The notes below the pieces were generated by a model. The model ran no database searches, was not told the DNA's origin, and saw only the letters and a list, made by a program, of their open reading frames with translations. 64,000 bases of DNA, taken from the IMG/VR virus record IMGVR_UViG_2846068587_000001. The stretch is one strand, 5' to 3'. The position numbers were made by a program, and so were the translations under genes. This DNA is from an uncultured virus (IMG/VR IMGVR_UViG_2846068587_000001). Lineage: Duplodnaviria; Heunggongvirae; Uroviricota; Caudoviricetes. Positions 3,935 through 23,414 of this stretch are shown here, in pieces. Each line of letters starts with the position of its first letter. Positions within the stretch are counted from its first letter, which is position 1.

Positions 3935-5049
3935 TTATACTTCCTCCTCGTCCGGTATGTCGATCACATTCCACATGCTCTCCCGCAGATCGAGGTACTT
4001 CTCCGTCATCAGCCGGCTCTTGTGGCCGAGCAAGTGCTGGCAGAACTCCGTTCCGTACTGTGCCTGGTACATCCGTGAGGCGAGACTGCGGATCTCGTGG
4101 AAGGAGGGAGGATGGGGCGCGTGTACCAGCCCACTCTGATCGAGCAAGCGGGAAAAGCCCTTGCTCAACGTGTCCGGCACCAGCGGGCCGCCCGGTGCAC
4201 GGTGGAGACGCGGACGGCGGGAGTTGAGCAGGTAGTCGCTTGGCCCTTGAGCCCGGCAACGATCTAGCACCTCGCTCAGACGTAGCGCGTACGGCCCCAA
4301 CTGAAGATGCAAGCGGGTGGTGATGGCCAGGCGGGCACCGGTCTTGCCTTGGATCAGCCACAGCTTATTCTCCCGGACATCTTGCCAGCGCAAGGTGCAG
4401 AGATCTTCCCGCCGCTGACCGGTGAGCAGCGCCAGCTCGATGCCACGGGCCAGCCACGGTTTTTTGGCCTCGCCTTGTAATGCCAGACGGTAGACGGCTA
4501 ACAATGTCTCTTCACTCAGGCGACGCCGCTTGACGCGGATGGGGGGCGTGCGGGTCTGGGCCACCGGATTGTGATCGATAAAGCCTGCCGCGACCGCTTC
4601 ACGAAATAGGGCGTTGAGGAAGGAGCGCATCAGGCTGGCGGCGGTGAGGCGGCCATCGAGTATGTAGGGGTGCAATAAGATGGCGATATCCCGCGTGCTG
4701 ATCTGCGTCAGATAACGCGGCCCGATCATCGCGTGTACCGTTTTGCTCTGTGAGCGGCGGGCACGCAAGGTATTGGCCGCCACGCCACGCTGTTCGAGCC
4801 GTTGGAGGTATTCGGTGATCCATTGGCTGACGGTGGGGATCTCATGCGGATTGGGTAAGGGGCTGGCGTGATCGCGGCGAGATAGTGATTGGCCTCCCGG
4901 GCTTGGCGGATAGCCTCACGCCGGGTGATGTAGCCTAAGGGCAGTTCACTGCCGGTGAGGGGATGGCGCCAGACGAAAAATCCGTGCCGGTTATCCAGGT
5001 TATCCGGCAGATTTTGCCTAGCGTCGTTGCCTCGGCTATTTTTCGCCAT
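3935..5049 (-). pseudogene. int: Lambda-type tyrosine integrase split by a 1-bp frameshift near 4860
   Basis: Arm-binding N-terminus in ORF 4726-5049. Catalytic motifs TGQRRED, QGKTG, FHEIRSL and LLGHKS..MTEKY in ORF 3935-4783. Confidence 0.9.
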
Positions 5050-5356: not shown

Positions 5357-5638
5357 TTAGCAAACAGGGCGGGGACGCTTTAACCAACGGTCGCCGACCA
5401 GATGATAGCGGCGGCAAAACGCCCGGCCGAGTTTCCCTTCTGCGGGCAGTTTGATGCCGATCGGCAGCGGCGTTCGGCGCGGGGTGAAGTAATCATCCAG
5501 ATGCAGGGCGCTGGCCGTTAGCGCGCGGTAGAGTTGAGAATAGGCGACGCGCACACTGTCGGCCTGGCAGCAAAATAGCATGTCCTGCTGACCGGACTGT
5601 TTTTTGGCTTTAATAAAGAAGGCGAAATATTCAGGCAT
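5357..5638 (-). CDS. Stand-alone paralog of the RecE N-terminal domain
   Basis: Aligns by eye with residues 1-88 of ORF 12167-14656 (FAF..AKK.SG..DM.F.C.A...DYF.P.RT.LP...LPAE..L...FCR.Y..V...W). Confidence 0.75.
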   Translation of the reverse strand: MPEYFAFFIKAKKQSGQQDMLFCCQADSVRVAYSQLYRALTASALHLDDYFTPRRTPLPIGIKLPAEGKLGRAFCRRYHLVGDRWLKRPRPVC

Positions 5639-6041
5639 GGCGAGGCTCTCCGAGTGGTGATGATCATAGGGTGCTGGGGGATGTGCGCCCGGTCGTGTTA
5701 TTGCGCTAAATAGCGGTGTTACCCTACTAAGCTAAATTCACTTGGAGTTTTTTTATGAGCTATACGTACTACGCCGACCCTACCTGTACATGAGCAATAA
5801 GTACCATTGGCTGATTGCGCAGAGTCGGGTGATGGCTCATGAGGATATTCGTTTAGTGTTGGCCTTGGATATGGAGGGCTGGTCGCTGTCGTCCAAGGCA
5901 CAGGTGAGGGAGTGTGATAGGACAAATAGCGGACAAGATAGATGTTTTCCCCAAACCGAAAATTTAATTGATTGGTACATCAGATTTGGCTTGCGGAAAA
6001 CCGAAGGTCGTGTAGTGCAGAGTATTTACTGGTTATTCACG

Positions 6042-6923
6042 TCAAATAGTGAAAGCTGGACGTGGGCCTGGAAATCCTTCTGACTCCATTTGTATAGCTA
6101 AATCTGAAGTGGTTATTCTTCGTAAAGTGGATGCTGCAATAAATTGAACTCCGAGCGCCAATCGGACAACCTGCAGACGATTAAGTCCCGCTGGTTTATA
6201 ACGACTTGCTACATAAGATGGAAGGCTATTAATTACTGCTTTAATTAATCTATCGTCACGATGAGGTTTTTGGCTTATCATTGCGTGTGCCAAATAAGTC
6301 AGATTATGACCATTTTTACCTTTCAATGTATCCAAGCTAATACCACTCCAAACTAAAGCAGCTTTGCAAGAGAGTTCTGCTACCATACAGATGGGTTGGA
6401 TCACTGAATCATGGCTAAAGCTATTAGGAAGTGTATTTGCTATATCTTCGAGATTGGAACGGGACATATTCCAGAGAGTTAATGCTTCTGATGCATAATC
6501 CTCTATTTCATTTAGACCCATAGTGAAATCATGAATGTCAGCAATAGCAAAAGACACTTCTGCAGCGATTTTTCGCTCTTTTCTACACCACTCCCACCAT
6601 TCTACGTCACTTGAAAATCCTGCTATTTCCCAGATTTCTAGTTTGTTCTCTCCATATAAGATAGGAAATGTTATTTTCCTAACTTGATCTATTGATGCAA
6701 TCAGACCGATTCCAGCTCCAGGCCAACTTGTTGCGACTTCAGGCATCATCGCAGTGTAAGCATCTACAATGCTTTGAACCTCAGGATTGCTGAAAAAGCC
6801 AAAGCTGAAATCTGTTCCGAGTATATCAATTGCTGCCTTTAGAGGTCGCTGATGAACGTAAACACCTTCCTGAGCATATTTTTTATCCAGTCTGCGTAGA
6901 TCGTCAATTGTCCACTCAATCAT
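6042..6923 (-). CDS. AT-rich cassette protein with C-terminal HEPN-like domain
   Basis: AELSCKAAL...GHNL..L...SRY pattern typical of HEPN helical bundles. Confidence 0.55.
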   Translation of the reverse strand: MIEWTIDDLRRLDKKYAQEGVYVHQRPLKAAIDILGTDFSFGFFSNPEVQSIVDAYTAMMPEVATSWPGAGIGLIASIDQVRKITFPILYGENKLEIWEIAGFSSDVEWWEWCRKERKIAAEVSFAIADIHDFTMGLNEIEDYASEALTLWNMSRSNLEDIANTLPNSFSHDSVIQPICMVAELSCKAALVWSGISLDTLKGKNGHNLTYLAHAMISQKPHRDDRLIKAVINSLPSYVASRYKPAGLNRLQVVRLALGVQFIAASTLRRITTSDLAIQMESEGFPGPRPAFTI

Positions 6924-7191
6924 TCCGATGTCCTCTTACCTATCATAAGCATGTTATATAAATATGCTAGAAAATCGGTGAATAAACAATCATTAGTTAA
7001 TGCAAGTGAGAAATATAAACACCATGATTAACAAAAGTATCAATATGATTCTAACTTGATGATTTTGTTTGATTATTTTGAATGTGTGGAATGCTTGTTG
7101 GAACTTTATATTTTTAATGGTGAATTGTAATCACAGAATTTTTCAAATACTAGATGTAAATGATTTCTAATTACTCATTAAGAAATAAATA

Positions 7192-7215
7192 TCTATCCCC
7201 TCACTCTCAGTAGGC
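7192..7215 (+). repeat. Degenerate palindromic cassette site, type A
   Basis: Core CCTCACTCTC identical to the site at 9908; arms eroded. Confidence 0.55.
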
Positions 7216-7687
7216 CATCTAAGCAGATGGTTTCCGATGTCATCCGTGGTAAACGGCTTACCACGGGTAGACTCGGCGCTCACCTGTTACCCCCTCGATA
7301 CGCGACGACACTACCCACCCAATAGAACCATATCCCTCACACCGGCAACTCCCTTGCCAACTGCGCCAGGATCTCCCGCTTACCCGGTAGGCGGTTGCTT
7401 TGGTGAGCCTGTTGCCAGGCGCGGCGCTGGGTCTTGGTTTTATGCTGGAGTAAGACATCGATCTTGCTGGTGGGGATGCCGAGTAGGGTGGCGATCTCCC
7501 GGCGTGCGCATTGATGCAGATGCAGCTGGTAAATGGCGCTGACGATGGCGTAGGAGTAGCTGCGGCGCAGTCCAATATTAAAGCGCTGCGGTACTCGGCG
7601 CCGCTGCGTGGGTTCGCTCGGCACGGGACGAGGGCAGGGTATCCATGTTGCTCCATTACGGATGGCGGCGCGTTGGCGCAGGCTCAT
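7199..7687. repeat. Direct repeat of ~9915-10392, including a 5'-truncated copy of gene 10049-10516 (ORF 7337-7687)
   Basis: Near-identical DNA and protein (LRQRAAIRNGA.WIPCPRPVPSEPTQRRRVPQRF...RELPV). Confidence 0.9.
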
Positions 7688-8204
7688 AGGCGTGGGAGCT
7701 TGCCCATCCGTGTGGAGTCGGTTAAAGGATCGCCTCTTTCACCGGTGTATGGTGGTGTTGCCGGATTCTTACCCGTGTCCGGCGCACGAACTCCATCACC
7801 ACATGGAGGTTCTCCATTAACTCCACCCTATGGAGGGTAAAATGCGTATTAATCAATTTGGTGGTACAGAGCGTCCAAGACCTGACGGACATTTCAGGTG
7901 ACCTTCCAAAAAAATGAATGATTTACCAAGTCATTGTTGATGTGATTCTATTCATTATTGGCATTAATAAATTATTCTGAGATAAAGCCACAAATAGGGC
8001 ATATGACCGGGATTTTTATCAAGTCCCATCCTGGAGGGAATGGGACTCTTATATCATCGATACTTACCTCCGAGCGTGAGGCGTTTACCCATGGCTGCGA
8101 TTCGACGATGGCATTGCTAACCTAGTGACGAAACATAGCGCAATATGTCACCGCTTGAGTTTTCCATACAGAAATTATTTTTATACACATGTACAATATA
8201 GATA

Positions 8205-8627
8205 TCAATATGTATTTATACCGCTCTCAATGGAACCAACACAAAGTCTATTATAGAACGCACCACTTGTATTAGTATATGTCACAACACCATTATTTAA
8301 GGCTATTACCGCAACCTCTTTGCCATTGTTATAAAACTGAACAAAAACCATTTTACCTGATGCTTGATTAATATCAATAAACTGACCAGAGTAAAGATCT
8401 GTAGTCATCTTATAGCCTTTGGCATCTTGAGTTATAGAAAACTTCATGTTATCGAAATAATCTTTTTTAAAGTTATTCGTCTTACCAACGGCACCATCTG
8501 GAGAAAACATAACCGACGAGCAAGTTAGATGTCTAAATTTACCTTCAGCTACAACTCGGCTTGCGTTAGCACTCAACGATGTCATTATGGATACAGCAAA
8601 GATGATTGACTTTGTTTTTAACTTCAT
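8205..8627 (-). CDS. Exported hypothetical protein (signal peptide)
   Basis: MKLKTKSIIFAVSIMTSLSANA-S signal; two Cys; AT-rich. Confidence 0.65.
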   Translation of the reverse strand: MKLKTKSIIFAVSIMTSLSANASRVVAEGKFRHLTCSSVMFSPDGAVGKTNNFKKDYFDNMKFSITQDAKGYKMTTDLYSGQFIDINQASGKMVFVQFYNNGKEVAVIALNNGVVTYTNTSGAFYNRLCVGSIESGINTY

Positions 8628-8736
8628 CACATTACCTAAAACAAAAATAAAATTAGTTGGCAATAATACCAGACATCTCAAAATAACTATTTGACTCGCT
8701 TCAAACTTTTGATAACTACGAATGATTAATTGGTTT

Positions 8737-8860
8737 GCAGACCGTAGCTGGGTATGATTATTTTAATTGCAAATTATATTATTGATTATTGTATATTGTT
8801 TAATAGTCGAGTGTGTGTCGTGATTATACTGATAGTCGGCTTTGTGCTAGAAGCGGAAGT
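8737..8860. repeat. Diverged copy of ~15402-15525 (left flank of the N-proximal cassette locus)
   Basis: GCAGACCG.AG.TGGGTATGATTATTTTAATTGCAAATTATA...TTATACTGA shared, ending in a type B site. Confidence 0.85.
8835..8858 (+). repeat. Palindromic cassette site, type B
   Basis: GTCGGCT-TTGTGCTAGA-AGCGGAA. Confidence 0.75.
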
Positions 8861-8947
8861 TGCTACATATCTATTGTGTTAAAATCAAAGGGCATGAGCT
8901 AAGATGTTAAGTTATATTAATGTTGAAAATATCAAAAGGAGCTCTCT

Positions 8948-9157
8948 ATGGCTACTAATGTATTTTTTGAGGAAGTAATCAAGGATCAAGGAGGTAAAAC
9001 CTCTATGGCTCTGGAACTCGGTCGATCTTCATACTATCCCGAAGACAGCATCTATTTAATTGTTGATGGAAAAACTGTAATAATGGATCTAAAAACTGCG
9101 AAAAGATTTGTTGATGCCGTAATTTCTGTTGGTTCCTATCATGGTTTGGTGGGGTAA
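8948..9157 (+). CDS. Small hypothetical cassette protein
   Basis: AAGGAG RBS; 69 aa. Confidence 0.7.
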   Translation: MATNVFFEEVIKDQGGKTSMALELGRSSYYPEDSIYLIVDGKTVIMDLKTAKRFVDAVISVGSYHGLVG

Positions 9158-9207
9158 TGCTTACCACTTATTACGGTTTTCACATACAATCCTAAAGGTG
9201 ACTGAAT

Positions 9208-9759
9208 ATGCAAATCAAAGACAGTGAAAAACTTATCCTTCTTATGCTATGTGATTTGTACGATAAGAATGGTGTTGAAGGAGATATGGATCACAACTTC
9301 ATCCGTGAAGCTATTTTTGAGCAGCAGACTTGGGCTATTCCTTGGAAGTTTTCAGGTATTCCATTCGAAGAACAGGACACCCCTCCGGAAGTTAAGCATG
9401 TATTGGATATACTGCACATGTGGAGCGCTATTGAATACAGTTACGCTAAACTAAGCGAAGAAGATAAAGCAATGCTTCAGCATGATGCTGCACCTTTTGG
9501 TGATAATCCACGTTTTAGTGGCTTTGATGGAAATAATGAATCCGAACTGCTACTCACTGCAGAATTTATTATCAATAAATTGGATCGCTTTCAGGAGTTC
9601 AAAGGGCGACATTTAAACTCTCATTCCCAAAAAGTAGATTGCTACGACAGAATGCTTAAGGTGTTTAACAAGGCTTTCGAAAACTATATTGGACAAGTAC
9701 TGTCGCGTGAACAACTTACTACAATACTGTTAGAGATTATACATCCCTGTAACAGGTAA
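9208..9759 (+). CDS. YfbU-family protein
   Basis: VLDILHMW...FSGFDGNNE...LNSH...YDRML motifs. Confidence 0.8.
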   Translation: MQIKDSEKLILLMLCDLYDKNGVEGDMDHNFIREAIFEQQTWAIPWKFSGIPFEEQDTPPEVKHVLDILHMWSAIEYSYAKLSEEDKAMLQHDAAPFGDNPRFSGFDGNNESELLLTAEFIINKLDRFQEFKGRHLNSHSQKVDCYDRMLKVFNKAFENYIGQVLSREQLTTILLEIIHPCNR

Positions 9760-9907
9760 ATTTTTCATTTTTTATGTATCCATATTCGATGCATGAATAG
9801 CTAATTTAATCACAATAGTTATATACCTGCTCTAAAGCGGCGTTACTAGACGCCGCTAACATCGACTGTTTAAGTGAGTTCCAAGTTCCTTGATGCCTAA
9901 AAGTAGC

Positions 9908-9931
9908 TTCCGCTCCTCACTCTCAGCAACC
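9908..9931 (+). repeat. Palindromic cassette site, type A
   Basis: TTCCGCT-CCTCACTCTC-AGCAACC. Confidence 0.7.
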
Positions 9932-10048
9932 ATCTAAACAGATGGCCTCCAATGTCGCCTGTGGTAAACGGCTTACCACGGGTAGACTCGGCGCCCATCC
10001 AGCCCCTCGATACACGCCGATACTTCCCACCCAATAGAACCCTAACCC

Positions 10049-10516
10049 TCACACCGGCAACTCTCTTGCCAACTGCGCCAGGATCTCCCGTCTACTCGGT
10101 AGGCGGTTGCTTTGGTGGACCTGTTGCCAGGCGCGGCGTTGGGTCTTGGTTTTATGCTGGAGCAAGACATCGATCTTACTGGCGGGGATGCCGAGTAGGG
10201 TGGAGATCTCCCGGCGTGCGTATTGGTGCAGATGCAGCTGGTAAATGGCGCTGACGATGGCGTAGGAGTAGCTGCGGCGCAGGCCAATGTTAAAGCGCTG
10301 CGGTACTCGACGCCGCTGTGTGGGTTCGCTCGGCACGGGACGAGGGCAGGGTATCCATCTTGCTCCATTACGGATGGCAGCGCGTTGGCGCAGACCCCAG
10401 AGGAGCCGAGCCGTGTGGTCACAGCGATCGTCCTGGGTGCGCGGTGCCGGGTAGATTAAGGGATCGTACTGATCGTCGTCGTACTCTTCTTCTGGTGTGA
10501 TATCGCGGAGTTTCAT
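10049..10516 (-). CDS. Phage early hypothetical protein with HTH-like C-terminus
   Basis: AAGGAG RBS; ARREISTLLGIPASKIDVLL HTH-like segment. Confidence 0.7.
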   Translation of the reverse strand: MKLRDITPEEEYDDDQYDPLIYPAPRTQDDRCDHTARLLWGLRQRAAIRNGARWIPCPRPVPSEPTQRRRVPQRFNIGLRRSYSYAIVSAIYQLHLHQYARREISTLLGIPASKIDVLLQHKTKTQRRAWQQVHQSNRLPSRREILAQLARELPV

Positions 10517-10545
10517 TATGCGCTCCTTGCTCGGTTTAGGGCGGA

Positions 10546-10695
10546 TTACAGCCGGTGGATCAGCAGCAGCGTCAGCCCGGCGATGGCCAGGCAGGCCAGG
10601 AAAATGACCCAGCCGTGGGGAGCGCTCGGTGGTTGGCGCAGTGCTTTGCCGCTGAGTTTGTAGCGATACAGTCCATTAATCGGGGGTGTTTTCAT
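10546..10695 (-). CDS. 49-aa membrane peptide
   Basis: MKTPPINGLYRY...GWVIFLACLAIAGLTLLLIHRL, GAGG RBS; below the ORF-track cutoff. Confidence 0.55.
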   Translation of the reverse strand: MKTPPINGLYRYKLSGKALRQPPSAPHGWVIFLACLAIAGLTLLLIHRL

Positions 10696-10762
10696 GGCAG
10701 CCTCGGGATGGTTGAGTTCTCCTTATGGGGGATACCCCGGCCAGCGCCGGGGTGTGTCGTCG

Positions 10763-11068
10763 TCAGTCACCGCGATACACGGCGCCGCCGGGGCCTCGAT
10801 GCCATGGCGGCGTGGGTTCGTACAGTGCTCCGGCGCTGGGGTGAGGTGGCATTGGCTGGAGCACCTGACGGCGAGGCTGGCGTGGGTAGAACGCCGCCGC
10901 CCGGTCGCGTAGGCGGTCGGCTGACCATTGACGCCATGACTTACCATCAAACTGCGGGTTAGGCTGCCCGGCGCGTAATAGAGGAAGTAGCGCGATAACC
11001 TCGGCGACGAGGCGTTGGATCTGCCGTTGGCGGGCGTTGTCCGCTGGCGTTTCTTTGCACTTTTCCAT
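10763..11068 (-). CDS. Phage hypothetical protein
   Basis: AAGGAG RBS; in operon downstream of recT. Confidence 0.6.
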   Translation of the reverse strand: MEKCKETPADNARQRQIQRLVAEVIALLPLLRAGQPNPQFDGKSWRQWSADRLRDRAAAFYPRQPRRQVLQPMPPHPSAGALYEPTPPWHRGPGGAVYRGD

Positions 11069-11086
11069 GGCGGCTCTCCTTTAATA

Positions 11087-12157
11087 TCAGGCGTATTCGG
11101 CGCGCAGATCATCCAGCGCTAGGGTGAAGCGCTGTTGCTCGCCGAGCGGTAAGATCGCCAGGCGGTTTTTGACCAGATTTTCCAACTGCTGAAAGGCGGC
11201 GCGATCACCGGGGGATAGCGCATCGAACGCGGCTTCGATTTCCAGTGCCGCTTTATAGCCGCTGCGCTTTTTCTGGCTTTTCCCGCGCAGTTCGAACAGC
11301 AGCTGGCTGCCCAGCGTGGATTTATGTTGGGCGATGCGCTGTTCAACCTGACGGATTGCCTCCAGTGTCGAGGCCTCCTCCAAGGCTTGACGCAAGCTTT
11401 CGCCTAGCGTGGCGTCGTGGCTGTCCGCTGGCACCTCCGGTTGTGCGTCGTTTGCTGAGTTGGCACTGTCTACCAGATCGTTGATGGAGACGCTGGGGGT
11501 GATGTCTTTTTCTTCCCGTGCCTGTGGATCTTCCAACTCGTCGGTGGAGTAGACGCCCAGCAATACGTCTGGGGTGTAGAGGCGCGCCCAGCGTTTGGCG
11601 GCCAGGTAGGCCAGCTGCTGCTTGGGATCGCTGGCCCATAGGGTGGAGTTGCGCACCTGGGCCTGAGAGAGCATCAGCACCAGTTCGCGCGGCGTATCTT
11701 CACCGCGCAGGGTGGCCCAGACCTTAATCCCACAGCCTTTTTCATCGGCCAGCGTCCAGCCCGGCGCGATGTAGCTGTGCCCCTTGGCGGAAGTTTTTTC
11801 GATAAATTTGCCGATCACGTTTTCCCAGGGACCGAACCAGTCGTAGTGCAGGCGATCTTTGGTGGGTGACATGGTGGTGATGATGGCGTTGACCAGCTGC
11901 GCCTCATACCCCAGGGTGCCGCTGACGATATGGGTTTTCTGCGCGACGGCAAAGGGATCCATACCCCAGCGGGCGGCCTGCATGGTGACGGCCATGCAGG
12001 CGTCGGGACTCTTCTGGAAGTGGGCGGGCACCATGGCGCCGCTGCCGGCCATGACGCGGGAGAGGGTCATCAGGCGGTCAAACAGTTCGCCATTGGTCAG
12101 GATGGTGACGTTATCGATCAGCGCGTTGTGGTTGTTGTCGGTGGTTTCCGTTTTCAT
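11087..12157 (-). CDS. recT: RecT-family single-strand annealing protein
   Basis: VPAHFQKSPDACMAVTMQAARWGMDPFAVAQKT...GYEAQLVNA...WASDPKQQLAY; adjacent to recE. Confidence 0.9.
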   Translation of the reverse strand: MKTETTDNNHNALIDNVTILTNGELFDRLMTLSRVMAGSGAMVPAHFQKSPDACMAVTMQAARWGMDPFAVAQKTHIVSGTLGYEAQLVNAIITTMSPTKDRLHYDWFGPWENVIGKFIEKTSAKGHSYIAPGWTLADEKGCGIKVWATLRGEDTPRELVLMLSQAQVRNSTLWASDPKQQLAYLAAKRWARLYTPDVLLGVYSTDELEDPQAREEKDITPSVSINDLVDSANSANDAQPEVPADSHDATLGESLRQALEEASTLEAIRQVEQRIAQHKSTLGSQLLFELRGKSQKKRSGYKAALEIEAAFDALSPGDRAAFQQLENLVKNRLAILPLGEQQRFTLALDDLRAEYA

Positions 12158-12166
12158 ATGGGCTCC

Positions 12167-14656
<2,490 letters not shown>

Positions 14657-14756
14657 AGCGATGTTCTCCTGGCGTAAAGAGGAAAGGGAGAAGCAAAGGG
14701 AAAAATAGCGTGCGGGTGGCTGGACAGCGCTGGGGCTGTCCGGCCTGGGGTAGGGA

Positions 14757-14849
14757 TTAGTCGTCTGCGTGGCGGAAATGACGTGAGTCTTCGGCCAGCT
14801 CGATTAAATCCCCGTCGCGGTCAAAGAAGGCGACGCGGATATCGTAGAT
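14757..14849 (-). pseudogene. Headless 3' fragment of a phage early gene
   Basis: IYDIRVAFFDRDGDLIELAEDSRHFRHADD* with no start codon; abrupt GC drop at ~14847. Confidence 0.5.
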
Positions 14850-14867
14850 GTATCTGCTGCATTTACC

Positions 14868-15347
14868 GTGATAAAAGAGGTGCTTGGACTTCTTAACGTT
14901 GTTAATGGTGCAAAGTCTGACTATGAGATAAAAGCTGCAACGTCAGAAATTCAAGGAAAGTTAATCACGTTGCAAAACGATTGTTTTGCTCTTGGCGATA
15001 TGATTCGCGCGAAAGAAGCAGAAGTAGTAGCGCTCAAAGCACAAATTGCAGAGTTTGAAGATTTCAAACAGCAGGTAGAAGGTTATATCCTTGATAAGCT
15101 TGACTCTGGTACGCTTGTTTACGCTAAGCGTCACACCATAAATGGTGCGGAGACAATGGTGTATCTTTGCCCAAATTGCTTCACCAAACGTATAATATCG
15201 ATACTTCAACCAATAGTTATATCTTCGGATTTTCGCTTTCATAAGAGTCGTTGCCTGTCTTGTGAGCATGAATTCACGATAAATAAGAATGATGGCTATC
15301 GATCACCGGCTTCTCGGTATATGAGTAACTCAGGGTGGTCTTTGTAG
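14868..15347 (+). CDS. Coiled-coil plus Zn-ribbon moron protein, probably missing its native start
   Basis: CPNC...CLSC; frame stays open upstream (DVSAAFT) into the junction, with no RBS. Confidence 0.6.
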   Translation: MIKEVLGLLNVVNGAKSDYEIKAATSEIQGKLITLQNDCFALGDMIRAKEAEVVALKAQIAEFEDFKQQVEGYILDKLDSGTLVYAKRHTINGAETMVYLCPNCFTKRIISILQPIVISSDFRFHKSRCLSCEHEFTINKNDGYRSPASRYMSNSGWSL

Positions 15348-15350
15348 GTG

Positions 15351-15421
15351 CATACTCAGCTGCGGTCTGTGACTCACCGCCATGACGCCCGTTATGACAG
15401 TGCAGACCGCAGATGGGTATG
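15351..15421. repeat. Long imperfect hairpin at the left flank of the cassette locus
   Basis: CATACTCAGCTGCGGTCTG / CAGACCGCAGATGGGTATG; half-copies at ~8737 and ~18517. Confidence 0.8.
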
Positions 15422-15499
15422 ATTATTTTAATTGCAAATTATATCCTTAATTATTGTATATTACTTAATAGATTGTTGTGTGGTGTTATTATACTGACT

Positions 15500-15523
15500 G
15501 TCGGATTTATGCCAGGAGCGGAT
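15500..15523 (+). repeat. Palindromic cassette site, type B
   Basis: GTCGGAT-TTATGCCAGG-AGCGGAT. Confidence 0.75.
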
Positions 15524-15708
15524 ATAGCGACAGCATACATAATTTCATGAATTTTTTAAAATTTTCCGCGTGGTTTCTGATTGACTAATGAAAATTAATT
15601 GAAATTATAAAGCATTGGCAGTAAATTGTGCAGTGTCGATGGTATAGCATTTACAAAAAAACGATCGGATATATTTAACATTCTCAATCATTAGATGAAA
15701 AGTGAATC

Positions 15709-16614
15709 ATGGATAGCTTAAAAAAGAAAGAGAATATATTTGTCAGGGTGCTCATAGTGTTGTTCTGCATTTTGCTGGCCTCAATGATAATGTTTAGTTA
15801 TTTTTATCTCGACCCTAGAGGAGAAATAAATTCAGGTGTAATCATCTTACTTTCATTACTACTCATTCTAATTTTATCAGAGAGTTTTGATAATTTCTCT
15901 CTTGGGAAGTTAATTTCTATTAGTCGAGAGGTCAAGCGAAAAGAACAAGAGGTTAATAAACTTGAAAGAGAAAAAATAGAACTCTTTAATCAATTGATTA
16001 AATTTACCAGCATTCAGCATCAGACCCAGCAGCATACTAATGTCTACGGAGATTATCATGCGGGAAAAGGAGCCTCAGTTGAACGCGCATCTGAGCAGGA
16101 AGTTGAGGCTAAAGCTTCTGACGAACGTCCAAAATCTAATGATGCACCAGGGCAAGGATATCGTATCGATTTTCATAAAGTTGAATCAATTGCAATGCAG
16201 AAATATATTTCAGATAAGGGTATACATTCTGCAAATGTGATTCGTGAAGCAAAACTTGTCACACAATTTTATGGGATAGATCCCATAAGTAACAATCAAC
16301 CAATTTTTGATGGTTATTATAAGAGTGACGAAAAAGAAATATTTATAGAGTTTAAAGCAAATCGCGGCATGCACATGATGCTTAGAGATCGAATTTATAT
16401 GATGCTTTCTAAACTAAATCATTATCAAAATGCAAAAGGGATAAACGTACACCTCGATTTGGTTTTGTTGAATCTTCCAGAGGATGGGAGTACGTATAGA
16501 ATAAATGATCGCTTTATGCAGGACTTCGAACCAGCAATAGTCTCTGGGCTTTTACGCATAAAAGAAATAGAAATAACTCAAGAGGAAATGGATTCCTGTA
16601 GGCGAGAGGTGTAG
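15709..16614 (+). CDS. 2-TM, coiled-coil protein with C-terminal PD-(D/E)xK-like domain
   Basis: Two N-terminal hydrophobic helices; IFDGYY...IFIEFK motif. Confidence 0.6.
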   Translation: MDSLKKKENIFVRVLIVLFCILLASMIMFSYFYLDPRGEINSGVIILLSLLLILILSESFDNFSLGKLISISREVKRKEQEVNKLEREKIELFNQLIKFTSIQHQTQQHTNVYGDYHAGKGASVERASEQEVEAKASDERPKSNDAPGQGYRIDFHKVESIAMQKYISDKGIHSANVIREAKLVTQFYGIDPISNNQPIFDGYYKSDEKEIFIEFKANRGMHMMLRDRIYMMLSKLNHYQNAKGINVHLDLVLLNLPEDGSTYRINDRFMQDFEPAIVSGLLRIKEIEITQEEMDSCRREV

Positions 16615-16675
16615 ATGTTTATCTAAACATAACACTACATGCACACTAAAATAGTGCGTCGGTTGTATGAATGAT

Positions 16676-16741
16676 GTCCGCTCTTCGCACACAGCGAACC
16701 TTGTGGCCTTGATTTCTGTCCGCTCCGTGCTATATGTAGAC
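16676..16741 (+). repeat. Tandem type A plus type B palindromic sites (cassette-cassette junction)
   Basis: GTCCGCT-CTTCGCACAC-AGCGAAC, 18-bp gap, then GTCCGCT-CCGTGCTATA-TGTAGAC. Confidence 0.8.
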
Positions 16742-16913
16742 ACTGCAAATATAATTCTTTGTTAATCAGTAGGAAATGCTCAGTCTGTATTATGTAGGGA
16801 TGTAATACAGTCATTTTAATTTATATCTGTATGTTTAATTTTACTTTAACCTGCATTAAGCAGTATAATATTACTGACTTTATAAGAATTTAAGACGTCG
16901 AAAGAGTATTAAA

Positions 16914-17755
16914 ATGAAAAAAACTCAGTTAGCAAACGAATTGAACTATCACAAAATTCAAAATTGAATGGCTTTTGTCTTATATGTGGCACGGAGGGTA
17001 AGTTAACGAAAGACCACGTACCGCCAACTAACTCACTTTTAACTATCGTTGATAGCCAAAAAACAGCCGTGGAGTTTTTTTCTAGGGAAGGTAGCGTAAA
17101 ACCACAGCGAATAACAACAGGTAACTACTCACGCACGCTCTGTTCTGACTGTAATAATAATGTATTAGGTTCTTTAGACTCAGAAATAGGCATTGTGCAT
17201 AAAATGCTATCAGAGAAAATTTTAAAAAAAATAAATAACAAGCAAGAATGCAATGATGCCATTAATGTCCCGGTTAATATTTCCAAGTACATGAGAGCAA
17301 TGGTAGGTCATATAATAGCAGCATTACCCTCGTCCTTTTGCTCAAGACCTTTAGATACGCCATTCTACACACCATTAAGAAACTTTGTCTTAGGCGATGA
17401 ATCAGGCGCTGATAATTTCGACTTCTATTACTGGTTTTTCCCCATGAACTATCAGATGGTTATTAATAATTTTGCCTTTAATGATTCTAAGCAACTCAGA
17501 TACACATTAGGTTCAATAATTTCATTCTACCCAATATCATTTATGATTGTAGATAAGAGCAGTAAAGAATATAATAAAGGATATAGTGTTGCAATACCAC
17601 CTGGAGCCGTGAAAATGGAACTGGCTGATGATGAACTAAAAATAAACCTTTCATCCTGGAATGATATTAAAACAGGATTTCCTTACACAGGGATTAATGA
17701 GTATGAGGTGCTCATGTTAAGTGAGGATCTTTCATTTGTAACTTATAAAAAATAA
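16914..17755 (+). CDS. HNH endonuclease-like protein; ATG 16914 is out of frame by 1 nt in an A7 run (in-frame TTG at 16964)
   Basis: CLICG...LTKDHVPP...LCSDCNN..LG motif. Confidence 0.7.
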
Positions 17756-17821
17756 CAATTAACAATACATCACTTATGTGTGAGTAGTTTTAAAGTGTAA
17801 ACAATTCATAATGGAAAAAGC

Positions 17822-18112
17822 ATGATGATTGAAACTATAAAAATACTAGCGGCAATTAGTAGCATCATTGGCTCTATGATTCTGGCTTATCGAGTTACAG
17901 GAATTCTTGCAGCACTTTCTCTTGCAGTAAATTGCTATGAGGTAAACATTAGACAATTAATGCCAACTCATGAGGGGGATATTCATTATCTCTCAAATGT
18001 AACTATGCACGTTAAAAATGCGCAAAAGAAACGGCTCCTAATCACGGGGTTTATCTTTTTAATTTTATCTGGCTTTTTGCAGTTTACAGCTTTGATAATG
18101 GCAAATATTTAA
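17822..18112 (+). CDS. Small 2-TM membrane protein
   Basis: Hydrophobic N- and C-terminal helices; same cassette as the HNH gene. Confidence 0.65.
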   Translation: MMIETIKILAAISSIIGSMILAYRVTGILAALSLAVNCYEVNIRQLMPTHEGDIHYLSNVTMHVKNAQKKRLLITGFIFLILSGFLQFTALIMANI

Positions 18113-18185
18113 CAATGGAATGATGCTATCGGTGGTGCGGCTGAAACGATTTGTACGTCATTTAAGCCGCATCGAAATTTAAAGT

Positions 18186-18215
18186 AACGTCCACAGTTCG
18201 CTCTTAGCGGACGTT
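18186..18215 (+). repeat. Palindromic cassette site, type A
   Basis: AAC-GTCCACA-GTTCGCTCTT-AGCGGAC-GTT. Confidence 0.8.
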
Positions 18216-18223
18216 TGGTTAGT

Positions 18224-18418
18224 AGATTACACTCTCCATTATTACGATATCCTATACAGCGCCATCTGTGCCAAACAGCAGTTGTCCCAACTGGGCTGCG
18301 GCTGTTGGCGCTCACCGCTGCACAGTACGATCACATCTACCCGATGTGACACGCGCTTGCTGGCGATTTCTGCCCGGTTTAGGGCAGGGCGGTGCGCTAA
18401 TTTTAAACCTAACGCATG
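18224..18418 (-). pseudogene. Duplicated 3' half of the N gene
   Basis: Near-identical to ~20770-20961. Confidence 0.9.
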
Positions 18419-18760
18419 TGTGATTTGTCAGCTTACTGGATGTAGTCCTCTACAGGGTGTTCCCTTTTGCATTTCTCGATTATCTGCGATCCATCTCGGC
18501 ACTGTTTCGTGTAGATACATACCAAACTGCGGTCTGTGACTCTCCGTCATGACGCCCGTAAAGGCTGTACAGCCCGAATTAACGAATGGCAGGTAATATC
18601 CACAAGTTAACTAATCTAACCAATAGAAATTCAGGAGTACCTCACTAAAAATTGTTAATTATAACTTTAAAATGATATAGACATACTGGTTATGCTTTTC
18701 ATAATTGACTTTTTACTCTGGCGATCAACTATTTATACATTTTGTTAAAGTGGGCCTAAA

Positions 18761-20653
18761 ATGAGCAACATATACACCAAAGAATATATAAATTATTACC
18801 TTAGCCTTACAACTGAACCTCAATACGCCATTATGCTTAAAGGTGCTTGGGGGTCAGGTAAAACTTGGTTCATTGAGCGGGTTCTTGAAGAATATAAGGA
18901 AACTCATCCGGAATTCAAATTCCTAAAAGTGAGTTTGTATGGCATCAACTCCATTGAGCAGATTGAAGGTGAATTCTATCGTCAACTGCACCCTATCCTG
19001 TCAAACAAAGCCCTGATCTTTGGTGCCAACGTACTAAAAAATACGCTCAAGGCTTCGATCAAGATTGATCTCAATGGCGATAATAAACCTGACTTAAATG
19101 TTAACACCACAGTTCCCACTATTAATCTTAGCGAATTTAGCAGAAAACCTGATGGTTTTGTGTTGGTTTTTGATGATATCGAGAGAACTGGTATAGATTT
19201 GCCAATCCTATTTGGATATATAAACCACTTTGTAGAAGTAAACGGATATAAAGCGATCTTGGTTGCTAATGAAGATGAAATAATTAACAGTAAACGGCGG
19301 ATAGATAATAACGATGAAAAATCCAATGATGATTACCAGAGGACAAAAGAAAAACTTGTAGGTAAAACATTTGAAGTGATGTCAGATTTACACAGTGCTT
19401 GTAATGTTTTCCTAAGCGTAATTAGCAATCCACAAGTTTCTAATATATTTAAAGTTGATATGCAGTCAATAGAGGATCTCTATGTGTCGGCGAATTATAA
19501 TAATCTGAGGCACTTGAGACAGTTCTTTCTGGATGTACAACGCATCACTTCCCTTATGGAAGAAAAATATATCAAAAACGAGGATTTCATGAGGGTATTT
19601 TACCAGCAATTGTTAATCCTCTCGATGGAGTATCGGGGTGGAAACCTTAGTTACGAGGAGTTTAATTCAATAGGAAAGGTTAATTATGGAATACTCTTAG
19701 GTGGAAAAAATACAGAAAGTAAGTATGAAATGATCGTTAAGAAATATTCGTCTCCTGTATTAACCGAGAAGCTACTGGATGGAGAGCTCTGGAGGGAGCT
19801 AATCTGTGATGGAAAGGTAACGAATAGCATTCTCGCTCAACTGGATATTACACGATTTTTTAGAAGCTCAGATGCTCAAGCATGGGAATATTTGTGGAAC
19901 TATCGAGAACTAAATGAAAATACTCTTACTGAACAGTACTACATTGCAAAGGATAATCTGTTCTCAGGTAAGATCACCTCTTTAGGTGAAATTTTGATGA
20001 CTGCGAGTATTTTGCTGGAAATGGCGAAAGAAGGTCTAACCACAGATGTTGTTCATGACATTATAGATAAGGCAAAGCTTCATATAAGTAGTTATTACAA
20101 TAGATTGGGATCTGCGGATATACATAAGGAGTATATGCAAGCGTATTTTAACGATTTAATAGCATGGCGTGGCATGTGTTTTCTTGATAGGGATAGTGAT
20201 GATTTTAAACTCATTGTTGAGCATGTTAAGGTGTCAAGGACGAAAAGGTTTGATGCATCAGTTCAGGAATTTGCGACGCAGTTCAGTAATGAGTTGCAAA
20301 GGGGAAATCTCACGTTTCTATATGAACTGAGCCAGTCTAATAAAAGAAAGCTAAATCTTCATGATGTGCCTTTTTTGCACTTAATCGATCCTGAGATTTT
20401 CATTGAAAGCTATAGAAAGCTTGACCCAATAATCATGAGGGAATTGATGTTTAGCCTTGGGAGTCGCTATTCTGATGAGCATACAAGAAACAGACTGAAC
20501 GAAGAATACGAGTGGTTGAAGAGGCTAAAATGTACAGCTATAGATTTCGTCCAAAACGCAACCAGTAGTACCTTTCAGGTTTTTCACGTCAAATTTTTTA
20601 TTGACCATGCACTGACTGGCGCAATTAAATCATTTAATAATGGAACAGATTAA
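18761..20653 (+). CDS. KAP-family P-loop NTPase
   Basis: AIMLKGAWGSGKT Walker A, LVFDDIER Walker B, EKLVG, NLR motifs. Confidence 0.85.
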   Translation: MSNIYTKEYINYYLSLTTEPQYAIMLKGAWGSGKTWFIERVLEEYKETHPEFKFLKVSLYGINSIEQIEGEFYRQLHPILSNKALIFGANVLKNTLKASIKIDLNGDNKPDLNVNTTVPTINLSEFSRKPDGFVLVFDDIERTGIDLPILFGYINHFVEVNGYKAILVANEDEIINSKRRIDNNDEKSNDDYQRTKEKLVGKTFEVMSDLHSACNVFLSVISNPQVSNIFKVDMQSIEDLYVSANYNNLRHLRQFFLDVQRITSLMEEKYIKNEDFMRVFYQQLLILSMEYRGGNLSYEEFNSIGKVNYGILLGGKNTESKYEMIVKKYSSPVLTEKLLDGELWRELICDGKVTNSILAQLDITRFFRSSDAQAWEYLWNYRELNENTLTEQYYIAKDNLFSGKITSLGEILMTASILLEMAKEGLTTDVVHDIIDKAKLHISSYYNRLGSADIHKEYMQAYFNDLIAWRGMCFLDRDSDDFKLIVEHVKVSRTKRFDASVQEFATQFSNELQRGNLTFLYELSQSNKRKLNLHDVPFLHLIDPEIFIESYRKLDPIIMRELMFSLGSRYSDEHTRNRLNEEYEWLKRLKCTAIDFVQNATSSTFQVFHVKFFIDHALTGAIKSFNNGTD

Positions 20654-20719
20654 CATACTGTTGATTAACACAATGAAATATTATTAGAAGCACTATGGAC
20701 GGTCAGGAAAATTATTAAC

Positions 20720-20743
20720 GTCTTATCTTCACTCTTAACGGAC
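20720..20743 (+). repeat. Palindromic cassette site, type A
   Basis: GTCTTAT-CTTCACTCTT-AACGGAC. Confidence 0.7.
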
Positions 20744-20784
20744 CTTTAGTTACCCCTAGCGACGGCAGATTGCACTCTCTATTG

Positions 20785-21081
20785 TCACGATACCCTATAC
20801 AGCGCCACCTGTGCCAAACAGCAGTTGTCCCAACTGGGCTGCGGCTGTTGGCGCTCACCGGCGCACAATACGATCACATCTACCCGATGCGACTCGCGTT
20901 TGCTGGCGATTTCTGCCCGGTTTAGGGCAGGGCGGTGCGCTAGTTTTAAACCTAACGCATGATCGATACGCGACTCGATCAGCTCGCGTTGGATAGCCTG
21001 AGCCTTGCGGCGTTCGTGGCGGCGCTGGCGTGCATTTTTCTGTGCTGGCCTGACGGAGTTTCCCTTGGTGATCGCGGCCAT
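20785..21081 (-). CDS. N: N-type antiterminator
   Basis: Arg-rich motif NARQRRHERRK (P22 N-like), C-terminal DNCCLAQVALY; first gene after pL. Confidence 0.85.
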   Translation of the reverse strand: MAAITKGNSVRPAQKNARQRRHERRKAQAIQRELIESRIDHALGLKLAHRPALNRAEIASKRESHRVDVIVLCAGERQQPQPSWDNCCLAQVALYRVS

Positions 21082-21236
21082 AATCCCTCCTGGATAGATG
21101 ACGCTAACAACAGTGGACGACGGTGACTTAGGCGGTGTGGAGGAGACAGCATGATCCACACACCCCGAAGTCATCGGGATCGGAGTCAATGGGTGGTGCG
21201 TTGTCGGCACCTTCCGTAGAGCTGGACGGCTCGTTG

Positions 21237-21520: not shown

Positions 21521-22651
21521 ATGAGTAGTATCAATGAGAAAATAAAAGAATTTAATGGAATTATTACCTACTTTAATGAGAATGTTAGTATTGTACAGAG
21601 TAGTGAGGCCACTTGTTTATGTGTTGATAAGACATTAGGTCTGTTATCTGAGTTGAGAGATGGATTAGTCCTGGAATATACAAATCACACACTTCCGCCT
21701 CTCAGTCAGAAGGAAAGTAATCTTTTAAAATCACTTTATGAAAAGATAAGCATTGCAGAGGAAAAAATAGCAAGCCATAAAGATGATGGGATTTTTGGGT
21801 TTATTCCTAACAGCGAGTTAAGGAAAGCTATTGTTGATGGTATATTGAGGCTAAAGAACTATAACCCAAGAATAGGCGTTATGGGGAAGACTGGTTCAGG
21901 AAAATCGTCATTATGTAATGCAATATTTGGTTCTAAGGCGTGTCCAACAAGTGATGTAGAGGCTTGCACTCGTAATATAAAAGAGTTAAAAATCACACAT
22001 GGTAAAAATACCCTAACACTTGTTGACTTGCCTGGTGTGGGGGAAAGTTATGATAGAGATAAAGAGTATTTCAAGCTATATGCTGAAGAAATACCTAAAT
22101 TAGATTTAATTCTATGGGTTATCAAAGCAGATGATCGCGCATTATCGCCAGATGAATCTTTCTATCAAAATGTGATAAAACAAATGAAGTGCGAAGAGAT
22201 CGTGATGTTTGTTATTAACCAGGCAGATAAGATAGAGCCGACAGTCCCTGGCTGGAATATAAAAAGTAACACTCCATCAAAAGAGCAATTTATCTCTTTA
22301 AATAAAAAGATCGATGATATTAGAAGTAGATTGTTTATTCCTAAGTTTGATATAGTGTCAGTATGTTGCAATGCAAGAAAATATAATATAGATATGCTTG
22401 TTAATGCTATGATTAGAAACCTCCCAAACGATAAAAGAAGTTCTATCTTTCGTTTTGTAGAGAAAGACAATAGGACGGAACAATCGGAAAATGATTCGAA
22501 AAACGGATTTGTTGAAGTTGTAGAAGATATTTTTGATGTTGCCATTGACATTATTCCAATGCCAGCGCCTGTAAAGACAATAGTAAAGAAACTAAAAACG
22601 AAAATTATTGATGGCGCCAGAGGGTTGTGGGATCGTATGTTTAATAGATAG
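21521..22651 (+). CDS. YeeP/YfjP-like GTPase with N-terminal helical extension
   Basis: GKTGSGKSS (G1), ACTR (G2), DLPG (G3), NQADK (G4), KADDRAL. Confidence 0.85.
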   Translation: MSSINEKIKEFNGIITYFNENVSIVQSSEATCLCVDKTLGLLSELRDGLVLEYTNHTLPPLSQKESNLLKSLYEKISIAEEKIASHKDDGIFGFIPNSELRKAIVDGILRLKNYNPRIGVMGKTGSGKSSLCNAIFGSKACPTSDVEACTRNIKELKITHGKNTLTLVDLPGVGESYDRDKEYFKLYAEEIPKLDLILWVIKADDRALSPDESFYQNVIKQMKCEEIVMFVINQADKIEPTVPGWNIKSNTPSKEQFISLNKKIDDIRSRLFIPKFDIVSVCCNARKYNIDMLVNAMIRNLPNDKRSSIFRFVEKDNRTEQSENDSKNGFVEVVEDIFDVAIDIIPMPAPVKTIVKKLKTKIIDGARGLWDRMFNR

Positions 22652-22703: not shown

Positions 22704-23414
22704 TTATAACAAAGTAACACACCAAAATGCCCGCCCTAAGATCTCAACACTATCCAAATCAGCGGTTTCGTCTGCAAATTTTGCGCTGTTGTAGCTGCGA
22801 ATACTGAGGCTATTGGGCCCAGTTCGGTAGAGCACCTTGAGGCGCTTCCAGCCATTCTGATTGATGGCATATACCTTACCGTCGATGATTTTTGTATCGA
22901 GTAGGTTGATGGCAACAGTCGAACCAACAGGAATGGCTGGTTCCATGCTGCCGCCATCCATGAGCGGGAAGCACAGTACACTGTCTTGCTGAGCACCGGC
23001 ACGTAGTAGGGTAGACTTAGCGAGGCGGACCTGTAGCCCATCGTTGTCAGCTGTGCTGTAGATCCCGTTTGCGCTAACAAGTTCGATATCTTTCAAAAAA
23101 GGGACTTCGGTTTCTTCAGCGCCTACCAAGAGAGCACAACTTAACTCAGCTTCACTCTGCTGCTCATGGCTATAAGATGATGAACCTGAGTAATTATTTA
23201 CACACTTCATATCACCACGGCCATTGGCTAACCACTCTACATTGATCTCGAGTGCGTTAGCTATCTCAATGATTTTTGTCGATGATCTTGCTTTTCCTGA
23301 GGTCAGTTTCTGGACGCCAGCTTGTGTCATACCCGCCCGTTCTGCAAGCGATGCCTGGGTGTAACCGGCCTCGCGCATTGCGAGTTTTAATCTTTCTGAA
23401 AGAGTCGTTTTCAT
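22704..23414 (-). CDS. cI: CI repressor (HTH plus S24 autopeptidase)
   Basis: TQASLAERAGMTQAGVQKL HTH; GGSMEP and KRL catalytic motifs. Confidence 0.95.
   Translation of the reverse strand: MKTTLSERLKLAMREAGYTQASLAERAGMTQAGVQKLTSGKARSSTKIIEIANALEINVEWLANGRGDMKCVNNYSGSSSYSHEQQSEAELSCALLVGAEETEVPFLKDIELVSANGIYSTADNDGLQVRLAKSTLLRAGAQQDSVLCFPLMDGGSMEPAIPVGSTVAINLLDTKIIDGKVYAINQNGWKRLKVLYRTGPNSLSIRSYNSAKFADETADLDSVEILGRAFWCVTLL

Follow-up and report, generated by a model that had tools for sequence, protein, structure and literature searches.

According to a later review, inverted repeats that flank fun(Z) of P2-like coliphages were reported, together with a proposal of site-specific exchange, by Nilsson, Karlsson and Haggard-Ljungquist (2004, Mol Biol Evol 21:1). 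The repeats of the P2 fun slot also organize the early-left region of the lambdoid prophage that is described here and that is contained in a 64,000-nucleotide stretch of DNA from an uncultured virus of the Caudoviricetes (IMG/VR record IMGVR_UViG_2846068587_000001), the whole of which is referred to below as the window. Two classes of 24-bp sites, denoted B and A, occur in this region at the left and right ends, respectively, of gene cassettes. On the basis of sequence comparison, we consider it moderately probable that the region is composed of gene cassettes of a site-specific recombination system, in which a tyrosine recombinase of 200 residues, acting in trans, would exchange strands within the core of the sites.

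The Z/fun slot of P2 resembles the locus in the window in that its sites belong to the same family and bracket variable AT-rich cargo, homology breaks at them, and a part of cassette 4 of the window recurs in such a slot. In the P2 reference genome, a B site with one arm mismatch follows gene G, and a degenerate A-type site precedes FI, the two being placed around fun(Z); further repeated boxes are found beside the A site. The window differs in that its sites are located in the leftward early operon of a lambdoid prophage, where two slots accommodate five cassettes.

Integrons resemble the system described here in their arrays of short cassettes, which are delimited by recombination sites, in their anti-phage cargo, and in a tyrosine recombinase, which is a candidate in the present case; a logic of circular cassettes is plausible here as well. 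In contrast to integrons, there is no fixed platform consisting of an IntI-type integrase, attI, and a common promoter, and the cargo is found in the family in both orientations (20 plus, 16 minus), whereas the cassettes of integrons are co-oriented and for the most part promoterless. Each cassette has two short heterospecific sites, whereas an integron cassette has one long folded attC, and the arms of the sites show 15 compensated changes versus 246 broken pairs. The pdif modules of Acinetobacter plasmids are moved by XerC/XerD and are delimited by two oppositely oriented short sites, with the enzyme supplied in trans. By their description, they are similar in carrying cargo between oppositely oriented short sites and in being common to different replicons, but the architecture and sequence of their sites appear to be different, and they are served by the host Xer pair rather than by a dedicated small recombinase, for which there is a candidate here. 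Recombinase-mediated cassette exchange is an engineered use of Cre or Flp with heterospecific sites. There, too, the sites have common arms and a differing spacer and like pairs with like, so that replacement is directional, although that is a laboratory method and the system considered here is a putative natural one. Finally, invertases of the FimB/FimE type also consist of about 200 residues and of the catalytic domain only, and the candidate recombinase gives weak matches to invertase models (E 2e-6 and 7e-4). Its score, however, is 27.5 bits versus a cut-off of 222, and the sites considered here frame exchangeable cargo and not an invertible promoter.

The preliminary description of the window, made from the sequence alone, had advised caution on novelty, rightly so, since a published review already mentions these repeats for the fun(Z) slot of P2. 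The system as a whole appears to be undescribed in the searched literature. Neither the two-core grammar of the sites, nor the joint in which 18 bp separate A from B, nor the breakpoint in the core, nor the link to a 200-residue recombinase was found there, although the 2004 paper may contain some of these elements. A search of the main texts with the site strings returned no paper, and the arm strings combined with ‘prophage’ gave a single unrelated one; queries for cassette systems that involve a small recombinase gave nothing relevant, as judged from the listings. In the passages retrieved by term searches, Rousset et al. (2022) cite the 2004 paper on P2 only for variable loci. Two hotspot surveys, one of P2/P4 from 2026 and a preprint from 2024, describe turnover, and term searches of both retrieved no passage on the palindromes and none that names an enzyme. 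The comparisons bear on how anti-phage genes are swapped so rapidly in the hotspots of phages and islands. Added here are the grammar of the sites, a likely crossover point in the 6-bp core, a candidate enzyme, and the presence of the joints in one-third of complete E. coli genomes. If correct, the proposal would place a second route for the capture of gene cassettes beside that of integrons and independent of it, and most arrays, like the present one, would be served in trans; the boundaries of cassettes, and hence new defence candidates, would become predictable from sequence.

Sites and their grammar

The consensus of the B site, located to the left of the cargo, is GTCCGCT-nn-GTGCCA-nn-AGCGGAC, and that of the A site, located to the right, is GTCCGCT-nn-TCGCTC-nn-AGCGGAC. 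The plain pattern of the arms (7-10-7, up to three mismatches) matches the window seven times, compared to 2.85 expected, and none of 100 shuffles reached seven; the matches include the five at 8835, 15500, 16676, 16718, and 18189. Position weight matrices (PWMs) were built from sites of unrelated viral contigs (35 A and 56 B). With these matrices, only seven positions in the 64-kb window score 14 bits or more, all of them on the plus strand and between 8.8 and 20.8 kb, and a single marginal match is found elsewhere (37042, 8.1 bits), while block shuffles yield on average 0.84 matches at 8 bits or above. The scores of the window sites, 14–28 bits, compare with up to about 40 for intact sites. 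The B site and the inverted A site differ at just two core positions. As a consequence of this likeness, several sites score on both strands (16676–16699 with 28.2 as A versus 29.0 as reversed B, and 8835–8858 with 26.9 as B versus 23.6 as reversed A), and the cassettes are framed by imperfect inverted repeats.

Seven of the eight sites listed in the preliminary description were recovered by the PWMs, with the classes and polarity that had been assigned to them. The remaining one, at 7192, scores −9.2 as an A site and is retained only as a decayed homologue of the site at 9908, on account of a 91%-identical duplication. Two further B candidates, a lone arm at 5928 (scored at 5911) and an eroded copy at 18588, had to be discarded, with scores below −22. 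The five proposed cassettes are not equally complete: cassettes 2, 3, and 4 have both sites, on the plus strand, cassette 5 has its A site only, and the HEPN-like cargo that precedes them has a decayed A site and no left site.

Outside the window, a scan of viral contigs for perfect arms and GTGC identified at least 122 stretches, in which the free core positions are conserved as GTGCCA. Sites in the same orientation follow each other in these viral loci as B then A in 51 pairs, at 622–3755 bp, and as A then B in 18 pairs, at 39–51 bp, 12 of which are at 42 bp; other orders are rare (BB three, AA two). The polarity claimed for the window thus holds in independent phage contigs. The short intervals are joints between consecutive cassettes, in which A and B are connected by an 18-bp linker with the consensus CTTCAGCTCAGTTACCTG. 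Arrays reach four cassettes, as in locus L036 (5392–8024), where a gene for a 335-residue Xer-like recombinase and an open frame of 542 residues are found 770 bp further on. A cassette comprises one to four genes in either orientation, with their own signals, and among 36 non-redundant cassettes the largest open reading frame runs in the B-to-A direction in 20 and against it in 16. The cargo includes DarT/macro-domain proteins, a reverse transcriptase with an ATPase, TIR and RelA/SpoT proteins, and a deaminase, as well as non-defence genes.

The joint consisting of A, linker, and B is present in 1867 of 5426 complete E. coli genomes, where it is always unannotated. In a sample of 151 genomes from one family, 49 have the strict B pattern, with at most one mismatch, in 1–14 copies, and none has its reversed control. 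The motif is therefore no repeat of intergenic DNA in general, the alternative that the preliminary description had named as a refutation. When a 75-bp joint was compared with the phage collection by BLAST, the matches were at chance level only; the pattern scans did find the sites.

A candidate recombinase at the joint

In two E. coli arrays (L129 and L130), the RefSeq annotation includes a 603-bp gene of a ‘site-specific integrase’ inside the array. An A-type site is located just upstream of this gene, and a hairpin covers its ribosome-binding site and start codon; on the 3' side, the stop codon is followed by a second hairpin and then by a B core with its right arm. The gene, lying between A and B, thus takes the place of the 18-bp linker. 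The same arrangement is found in distinct enteric-type viral loci, with an A core upstream of the gene in all 14 of them and GTGCCA with the right arm after the stop codon in 11 of the 12 that have an intact 3' end. The hairpin in the leader is conserved (positions 11010–11051 in L129, and in equivalent loci), and its 3' arm holds both GGAG and ATG, which suggests translational control of the recombinase.

The 200-residue protein matches Pfam Phage_integrase (2e-17), the catalytic domain of tyrosine recombinases. Residues R51, K79, H148, R151, H174, and Y183 are invariant in nine sequences, down to 60% identity. Compared with the model of archaeal XerA and integron integrases, the protein scores 54.6 bits, with a cut-off of 220, and its nearest solved structures are XerD, XerC-like, XerH, and XerA, at E 1e-6 or weaker. 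Of the 5426 complete E. coli genomes, 848 have the gene, located at numerous positions, and 827 of 850 matching records are 90–100% identical. Its range covers at least 579 species genomes, which belong to the Gamma-, Beta-, and Alphaproteobacteria and to a few other phyla.

The association of the gene with the sites was followed in its homologues, of which 78 loci, with at least 60% identity, were kept. The right half of a B site lies within 110 nt of the recombinase stop codon in 27 of 75 loci, versus 161 of 5350 control windows. In the family sample, a strict B site is present in 12 of 14 genomes that have the recombinase and in 37 of 76 genomes of at least 3 Mb that do not (p = 0.017). Homologues with 60–66% identity in Pseudomonas, Lysobacteraceae, Achromobacter, and an alphaproteobacterium (L152, L153, L156, L175, L231, L242, L279, and L288) keep the downstream hairpin, which is followed by a GGCCAGAAGCGGA-like sequence, and some of them have an upstream GTCCGCTT-GGGTCG motif. 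Such variant sites could define sister systems.

In agreement with the preliminary description, which had seen no dedicated recombinase near the cassettes, there is no relative of this 200-residue family in the window, and a search of the window for remnants of the recombinase module yielded only chance 10–12-mers. The gene is also absent from the other places in which cassettes of the window recur. A phmmer search with the integrases of the window and of P2 returned one Xer-like gene only and missed the small recombinase.

The sites could be genuine recombination sites of a different enzyme, be it the host XerCD, a phage integrase, or some further recombinase, with the 200-residue gene as a passenger at the joints. 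We regard such an assignment as unlikely. The scarcity of the small recombinase near arrays (within 4 kb in two of the 122 viral loci) is in its favor, as are the presence of the joint in 1867 E. coli genomes compared to only 848 with the recombinase gene and the Xer-like gene 770 bp downstream of the four-cassette array of L036. A passenger, however, would be expected inside a B…A unit and not in the place of the linker, where, in the enteric-type loci, the small gene has an A core on its upstream side (14 of 14) and a B core with its arm on the downstream side (11 of 12). Sequences resembling the arms are, moreover, still found next to homologues of 60% identity from further proteobacterial classes.

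Homology breakpoints and recurrence of the cassettes

Relatives of the N protein of the window are encoded in 17 viral loci. These sisters have int, RecT/RecE, N, and replication genes in common with the window (80–99% identity), and their slots contain unrelated cargo of 1.1–4.1 kb between a B site preceded by two left-flank elements, D5 and D3, and an A site adjacent to N. On the left, homology to the sisters ends at B+14 to B+31, and on the right it resumes, in most pairs, at A−9 to A+9. Homology between sister prophages therefore breaks at the sites and the cargo between them is unrelated, which is the favorable outcome of a test named in the preliminary description. The nearest provirus, which shares 51% of the sampled words of the window and has a backbone that is 95–99% identical, contains none of its cassettes; beside N, where the window has three, it has a single cassette of 1.1 kb.

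The cassettes of the window recur in other surroundings. The KAP cassette (cassette 5) is found on a Pantoea plasmid, 86% identical over 18577–20751, between a perfect B and a perfect A, which is followed by 18 bp and another B. In E. coli chromosomes it is about 81–83% identical, and the match ends at window position 20722; 50 E. coli genomes gave matches, and among the 40 matches listed 37 are the KAP cassette and end at 20722. In the copies on the Pantoea plasmid and in an E. coli chromosome, a B site is located 22 bp before the start of homology (window 18577), from which it follows that the KAP cassette of the window once had a B site and that this part has since been replaced. The segment 15510–16730, comprising cassette 3, is 94.4% identical in an e14-like prophage array of E. 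coli (L295), the match extending from the inside of one B site to the inside of the next. The 3' part of cassette 4 (17516–18212) is 92% identical in a P2-type Z/fun slot of E. coli (L296), a match whose end coincides with the final base of A, and a part of the YfbU cassette (cassette 2, window 9178–9874) is 82% identical in a B…A array on a Raoultella plasmid. Positions 7001–7842 of L296 are a chimera of the leader of cassette 3 (15494–15640) and the 3' part of cassette 4 (17516–18212), which indicates that cassettes are also remodelled internally.

As an alternative to site-specific exchange, the sites might be short conserved linkers, and the cassettes might be swapped by homologous or relaxed recombination, for example by the phage RecET, via the 24 bp and the flanks. 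The operon itself encodes RecT and RecE, about 100–150 bp to the left of B (D3/D5) and the end of N to the right of A are conserved among the sisters and are potential homology arms, and the slot duplications described below point to unequal homologous exchange. However, the same cassettes are found in unrelated backbones (lambdoid, P2-type, e14-like, and plasmids) that share only the 24-bp sites, and the breakpoint is confined to the interval between site positions 9 and 16 and does not spread across the arms or flanks, which makes this mode of exchange very unlikely.

Position of the exchange point

The two bases on either side of the core are variable between sites and served as markers of the two half-sites. 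In 135 pairs of B sites with the same left flank and different cargo, the left half (positions 1–9) is identical in 118 and the right half (positions 16–24) in 19. In 72 pairs of A sites with the same right flank and different cargo, the right half is identical in 52 and the left half in one. Smaller reciprocal sets of half-sites agree. In the lineage of the window, every D3-adjacent B site has the left half GTCGGCT TT, with a right half that varies with the cargo, and most N-adjacent A sites keep a right half near TT AGCGGAC, with a left half that varies with the cargo. Since each half-site tracks its own flank, the junction of ancestries lies between positions 9 and 16, that is, in the conserved 6-bp core. 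Such a breakpoint would fit the crossover of a tyrosine recombinase in a short overlap, and would fit neither transposition nor homologous recombination.

The half-sites also bear on the suggestion that B and A represent terminal inverted repeats that belong to transposons without a transposase (a derivative of the IS481 type), mobilized by a transposase in trans. B approximates the reverse complement of A, with the same arms and with cores that can be written G-T/A-G-C-C/G-A, and the repeated boxes beside the A site of P2 are in keeping with such an origin. The outer half-site, however, follows the flank rather than the cargo (in 118 of 135 and in 52 of 72 pairs), which is the opposite of the behavior of a transposon end. 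In addition, the linker in the joints has a constant length of 18 bp and a conserved sequence, and no target duplications were seen at the individual junctions that were inspected. We therefore hold this origin to be most improbable.

The arms, on the other hand, are informative about the mode of recognition. In 200 distinct sites, 311 arm positions depart from the consensus; pairing is broken at 246 of them, restored by a compensating change at 15, and of the G-T type at 50. The small number of compensated changes argues for sequence-specific half-sites that are recognized on duplex DNA rather than for a selected hairpin. That the palindromes are regulatory elements of morons (an operator or 5' hairpin at B and a terminator at A) with no role in mobility is scarcely credible. 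A promoter-like match with an extended −10 just before B (15465–15492) and one A site (18196–18212) that is flagged as terminator-like speak for this function. Against it, only this one of seven sites resembles a terminator, the cargo occurs in both orientations between B and A (20 versus 16), the arms show no pattern of compensatory changes, the loops, not the stems, define the two conserved classes, and homology between genomes breaks inside the sites.

Proposed mechanism

On the observed sites, grammar, breakpoints, and gene–site association, a scheme of cassette exchange by a recombinase in trans can be built, in which the chemistry, the circular intermediate, and the acting enzyme are put forward conditionally. 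The recombinase would bind the arms and exchange strands inside the core. Because the cores differ, B would pair only with B and A only with A. Recombination of B with B, or of A with A, within an array would release a circle that contains one cargo and one A–linker–B joint, and this circle could be taken up by any other B or A site. Recombination first between two B sites and then between two A sites would replace one cargo by another. The enzyme would most likely be the conserved 200-residue tyrosine recombinase, and the array of the window would be mobilized only in trans. In the window, one B site is lost, one A site is decayed, and there is no gene of the enzyme; with no recombinase gene and with eroded sites, the five cassettes are probably a resting, partly fossil array that would be served in trans. 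The platform for site-directed cassette exchange that the preliminary description had postulated, distinct from attC integrons and with its enzyme in trans, is thus favored by the comparison. For a broader proposition, that two-site exchange with a minimal recombinase riding in the A–B joint moves single cassettes of defence and other accessory genes between prophages (P2-like and lambdoid), plasmids, and islands of the chromosome throughout the Proteobacteria, we find the balance to be even.

Several points weigh against this scheme. The comparison is one of sequences, in which no recombination event, product, circle, or empty site was observed, and the link between the enzyme and the sites is one of association. 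Public sequencing runs, consulted for excised circles or empty sites, contain at most a 0.16 share of the words of this DNA (contigs only). The B half-site accompanies the recombinase in only 27 of 75 loci of distant taxa, two of the 14 recombinase-positive genomes have no strict B site, the gene is found within 4 kb of a B anchor in two of the 122 viral loci, both on one contig, in addition to one fragment, and it is absent from all sister loci. The 135 and 72 half-site pairs are non-independent, and many of them come from the P2-type slot, although every distinct cargo in a given slot implies at least one exchange. In some pairs of sisters, homology of the right flank resumes only at A+35 to A+60. 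The window sites, at 14–28 bits, may no longer be functional. Variable DNA without sites is present in the same operon, at the left edge of the HEPN-like cargo and at 14850–15350, a segment that differs between sisters, and both slots are tandemly duplicated together with pieces of the backbone; these two features indicate that other routes of recombination also shape the region.

Organization of the array in the window

The cassettes occupy two slots of the leftward early operon, one beside N and the other beside the backbone gene 10049–10516 (minus strand). Their G+C content is 0.35–0.42, compared to about 0.60 for the backbone. At the left of the array, an AT-rich insert (about 5907–7191) that has no left site contains cargo gene 1 (6042–6923, minus strand), which encodes 293 residues and has no match in Pfam, PADLOC, or PHROG. 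The earlier assignment of this protein as HEPN-like is kept as a lead only, the nearest Atlas clusters having 15–51% HEPN members (TM score 0.70). The sister L210 has other DNA between window positions 5906 and 7318. The right edge of this cargo is the decayed A-type site (7192–7215, plus strand; PWM A −9.2), which aligns with the site at 9908 at the start of a duplication of a backbone gene (7199–7681 and 9915–10393, 91% identical).

Cassette 2 is preceded by the first copy of D3 (8736–8834, plus strand), an AT-rich left-flank block that is conserved in the sisters up to the B site; as a direct repeat, it extends over 8736–8857 and 15401–15522, with 83% identity. The B site that follows (8835–8858, plus strand; PWM B 26.9) has the left half GTCGGCT TT, common to the sister prophages. 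The cargo (8859–9907, plus strand) consists of an open reading frame of 69 residues (8948–9157) and a gene of the YfbU family (9208–9759), the latter identified correctly from the sequence (Pfam YfbU 3e-20). The cassette ends with the A site at 9908–9931 (plus strand; PWM A 17.9), which abuts the gene 10049–10516, and in the sisters L212, L215, and L216 homology to the window begins at 9907–9916.

To the left of the second slot lies D5, a 67-bp flank element containing a hairpin (copy 1 at 15343–15409, plus strand), which forms an 81%-identical direct repeat with copy 2 at 18510–18576. The stem of its hairpin has 10 bp (CTGCGGTCTG...CAGACCGCAG), and D5 is kept to the left of the slot in sister prophages. 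The B site of cassette 3 (15500–15523, plus strand; PWM B 16.3) is the place where flank homology of the sisters stops, at 15514–15525. The cargo of this cassette (15524–16675, plus strand) contains the gene of a membrane protein of 301 residues (15709–16614); its proposed PD-(D/E)xK domain is a lead only, with Mrr_cat in 22% of a cluster of rank 9. Cassettes 3 and 4 are connected by a joint (16676–16741, plus strand) that consists of A (16676–16699; PWM A 28.2), the 18-bp linker, and B (16718–16741; PWM B 14.7), with a start-to-start spacing of 42 bp, as in 12 of the 18 A-to-B pairs of viral contigs.

The cargo of cassette 4 (16742–18188, plus strand) comprises a gene for 263 residues (16964–17755) and a gene for a protein of 96 residues with two transmembrane segments (17822–18112); phrog_21495 is recorded for this cargo, and the HNH domain that had been assigned to it, in the gene for 263 residues, is a sub-threshold match (HNH_5, E 0.0038). 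PADLOC, PHROGs, and Pfam gave nothing useful for the genes of 158, 69, and 96 residues. Sister homology begins at 18184–18243, at the A site of cassette 4 (18189–18212, plus strand; PWM A 26.0). After this site lies a duplicated 3' fragment of N (18224–18418, minus strand), 93% identical to 20767–20961, which is the right-flank backbone of the second copy of the slot. Similar fragments of N are present in the related proviruses L214, L215, and L216, so that slot duplication seems to be a regular way of stacking cargo.

Cassette 5 (18577–20719, plus strand), the B site of which is lost, carries the gene of a P-loop NTPase of the KAP family (18761–20653), an assignment that is borne out by Pfam (KAP_NTPase, 4e-23) and PADLOC (PDC-S49, 1e-154). 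Its A site (20720–20743, plus strand; PWM A 14.7) is located 42 bp downstream of the stop codon of N, which is on the minus strand, and sister prophages have an A site, with scores of 24–36, at the same place beside N. The repeats of D3, D5, N, and the backbone gene taken together indicate that each of the two slots was duplicated in tandem with its backbone flanks. Between RecE and D5, the variable segment (14850–15350) contains a gene for 159 residues (phrog_1244, with a weak coiled-coil match).

The prophage backbone

The backbone of the window has about 60% G+C and is interrupted by blocks of 34–42%. Pfam matches show that the left arm of a lambdoid prophage runs here on the minus strand, with the integrase (3935–4783, minus strand), the only one in the window, followed by an N-terminal fragment of exonuclease VIII (5357–5638, minus strand), RecT (11087–12157, minus strand), RecE (12167–14656, minus strand), and the gene of the N antiterminator (20785–21210, minus strand; N_peptide 1.4e-11), which is the right flank of the slot. 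A repressor of the cI type (22704–23429) and the replication genes come next. The cassette region is thus the leftward early operon between N and int, in which the AT-rich blocks are inserted cargo, mostly on the plus strand.

Two further AT-rich genes lie outside the slots. The gene at 21521–22651, dynamin/GTPase-like and with weak matches to LeoA, is positioned between N and the gene of the cI-type repressor, on the opposite strand, and no A or B sites are found near it. The gene of a PLD-like nuclease (2146–3210), with weak matches to DpdK and DrmC, is located beside int. Repeats connect the segments 1–1602, 29968–31591, and 62583–62775. The left end of the window repeats the region of a Rha-type regulator (83–97% identity), as well as the last 118–190 bp before the right end of the prophage, which suggests that remnants of a second, related prophage are present beside int.

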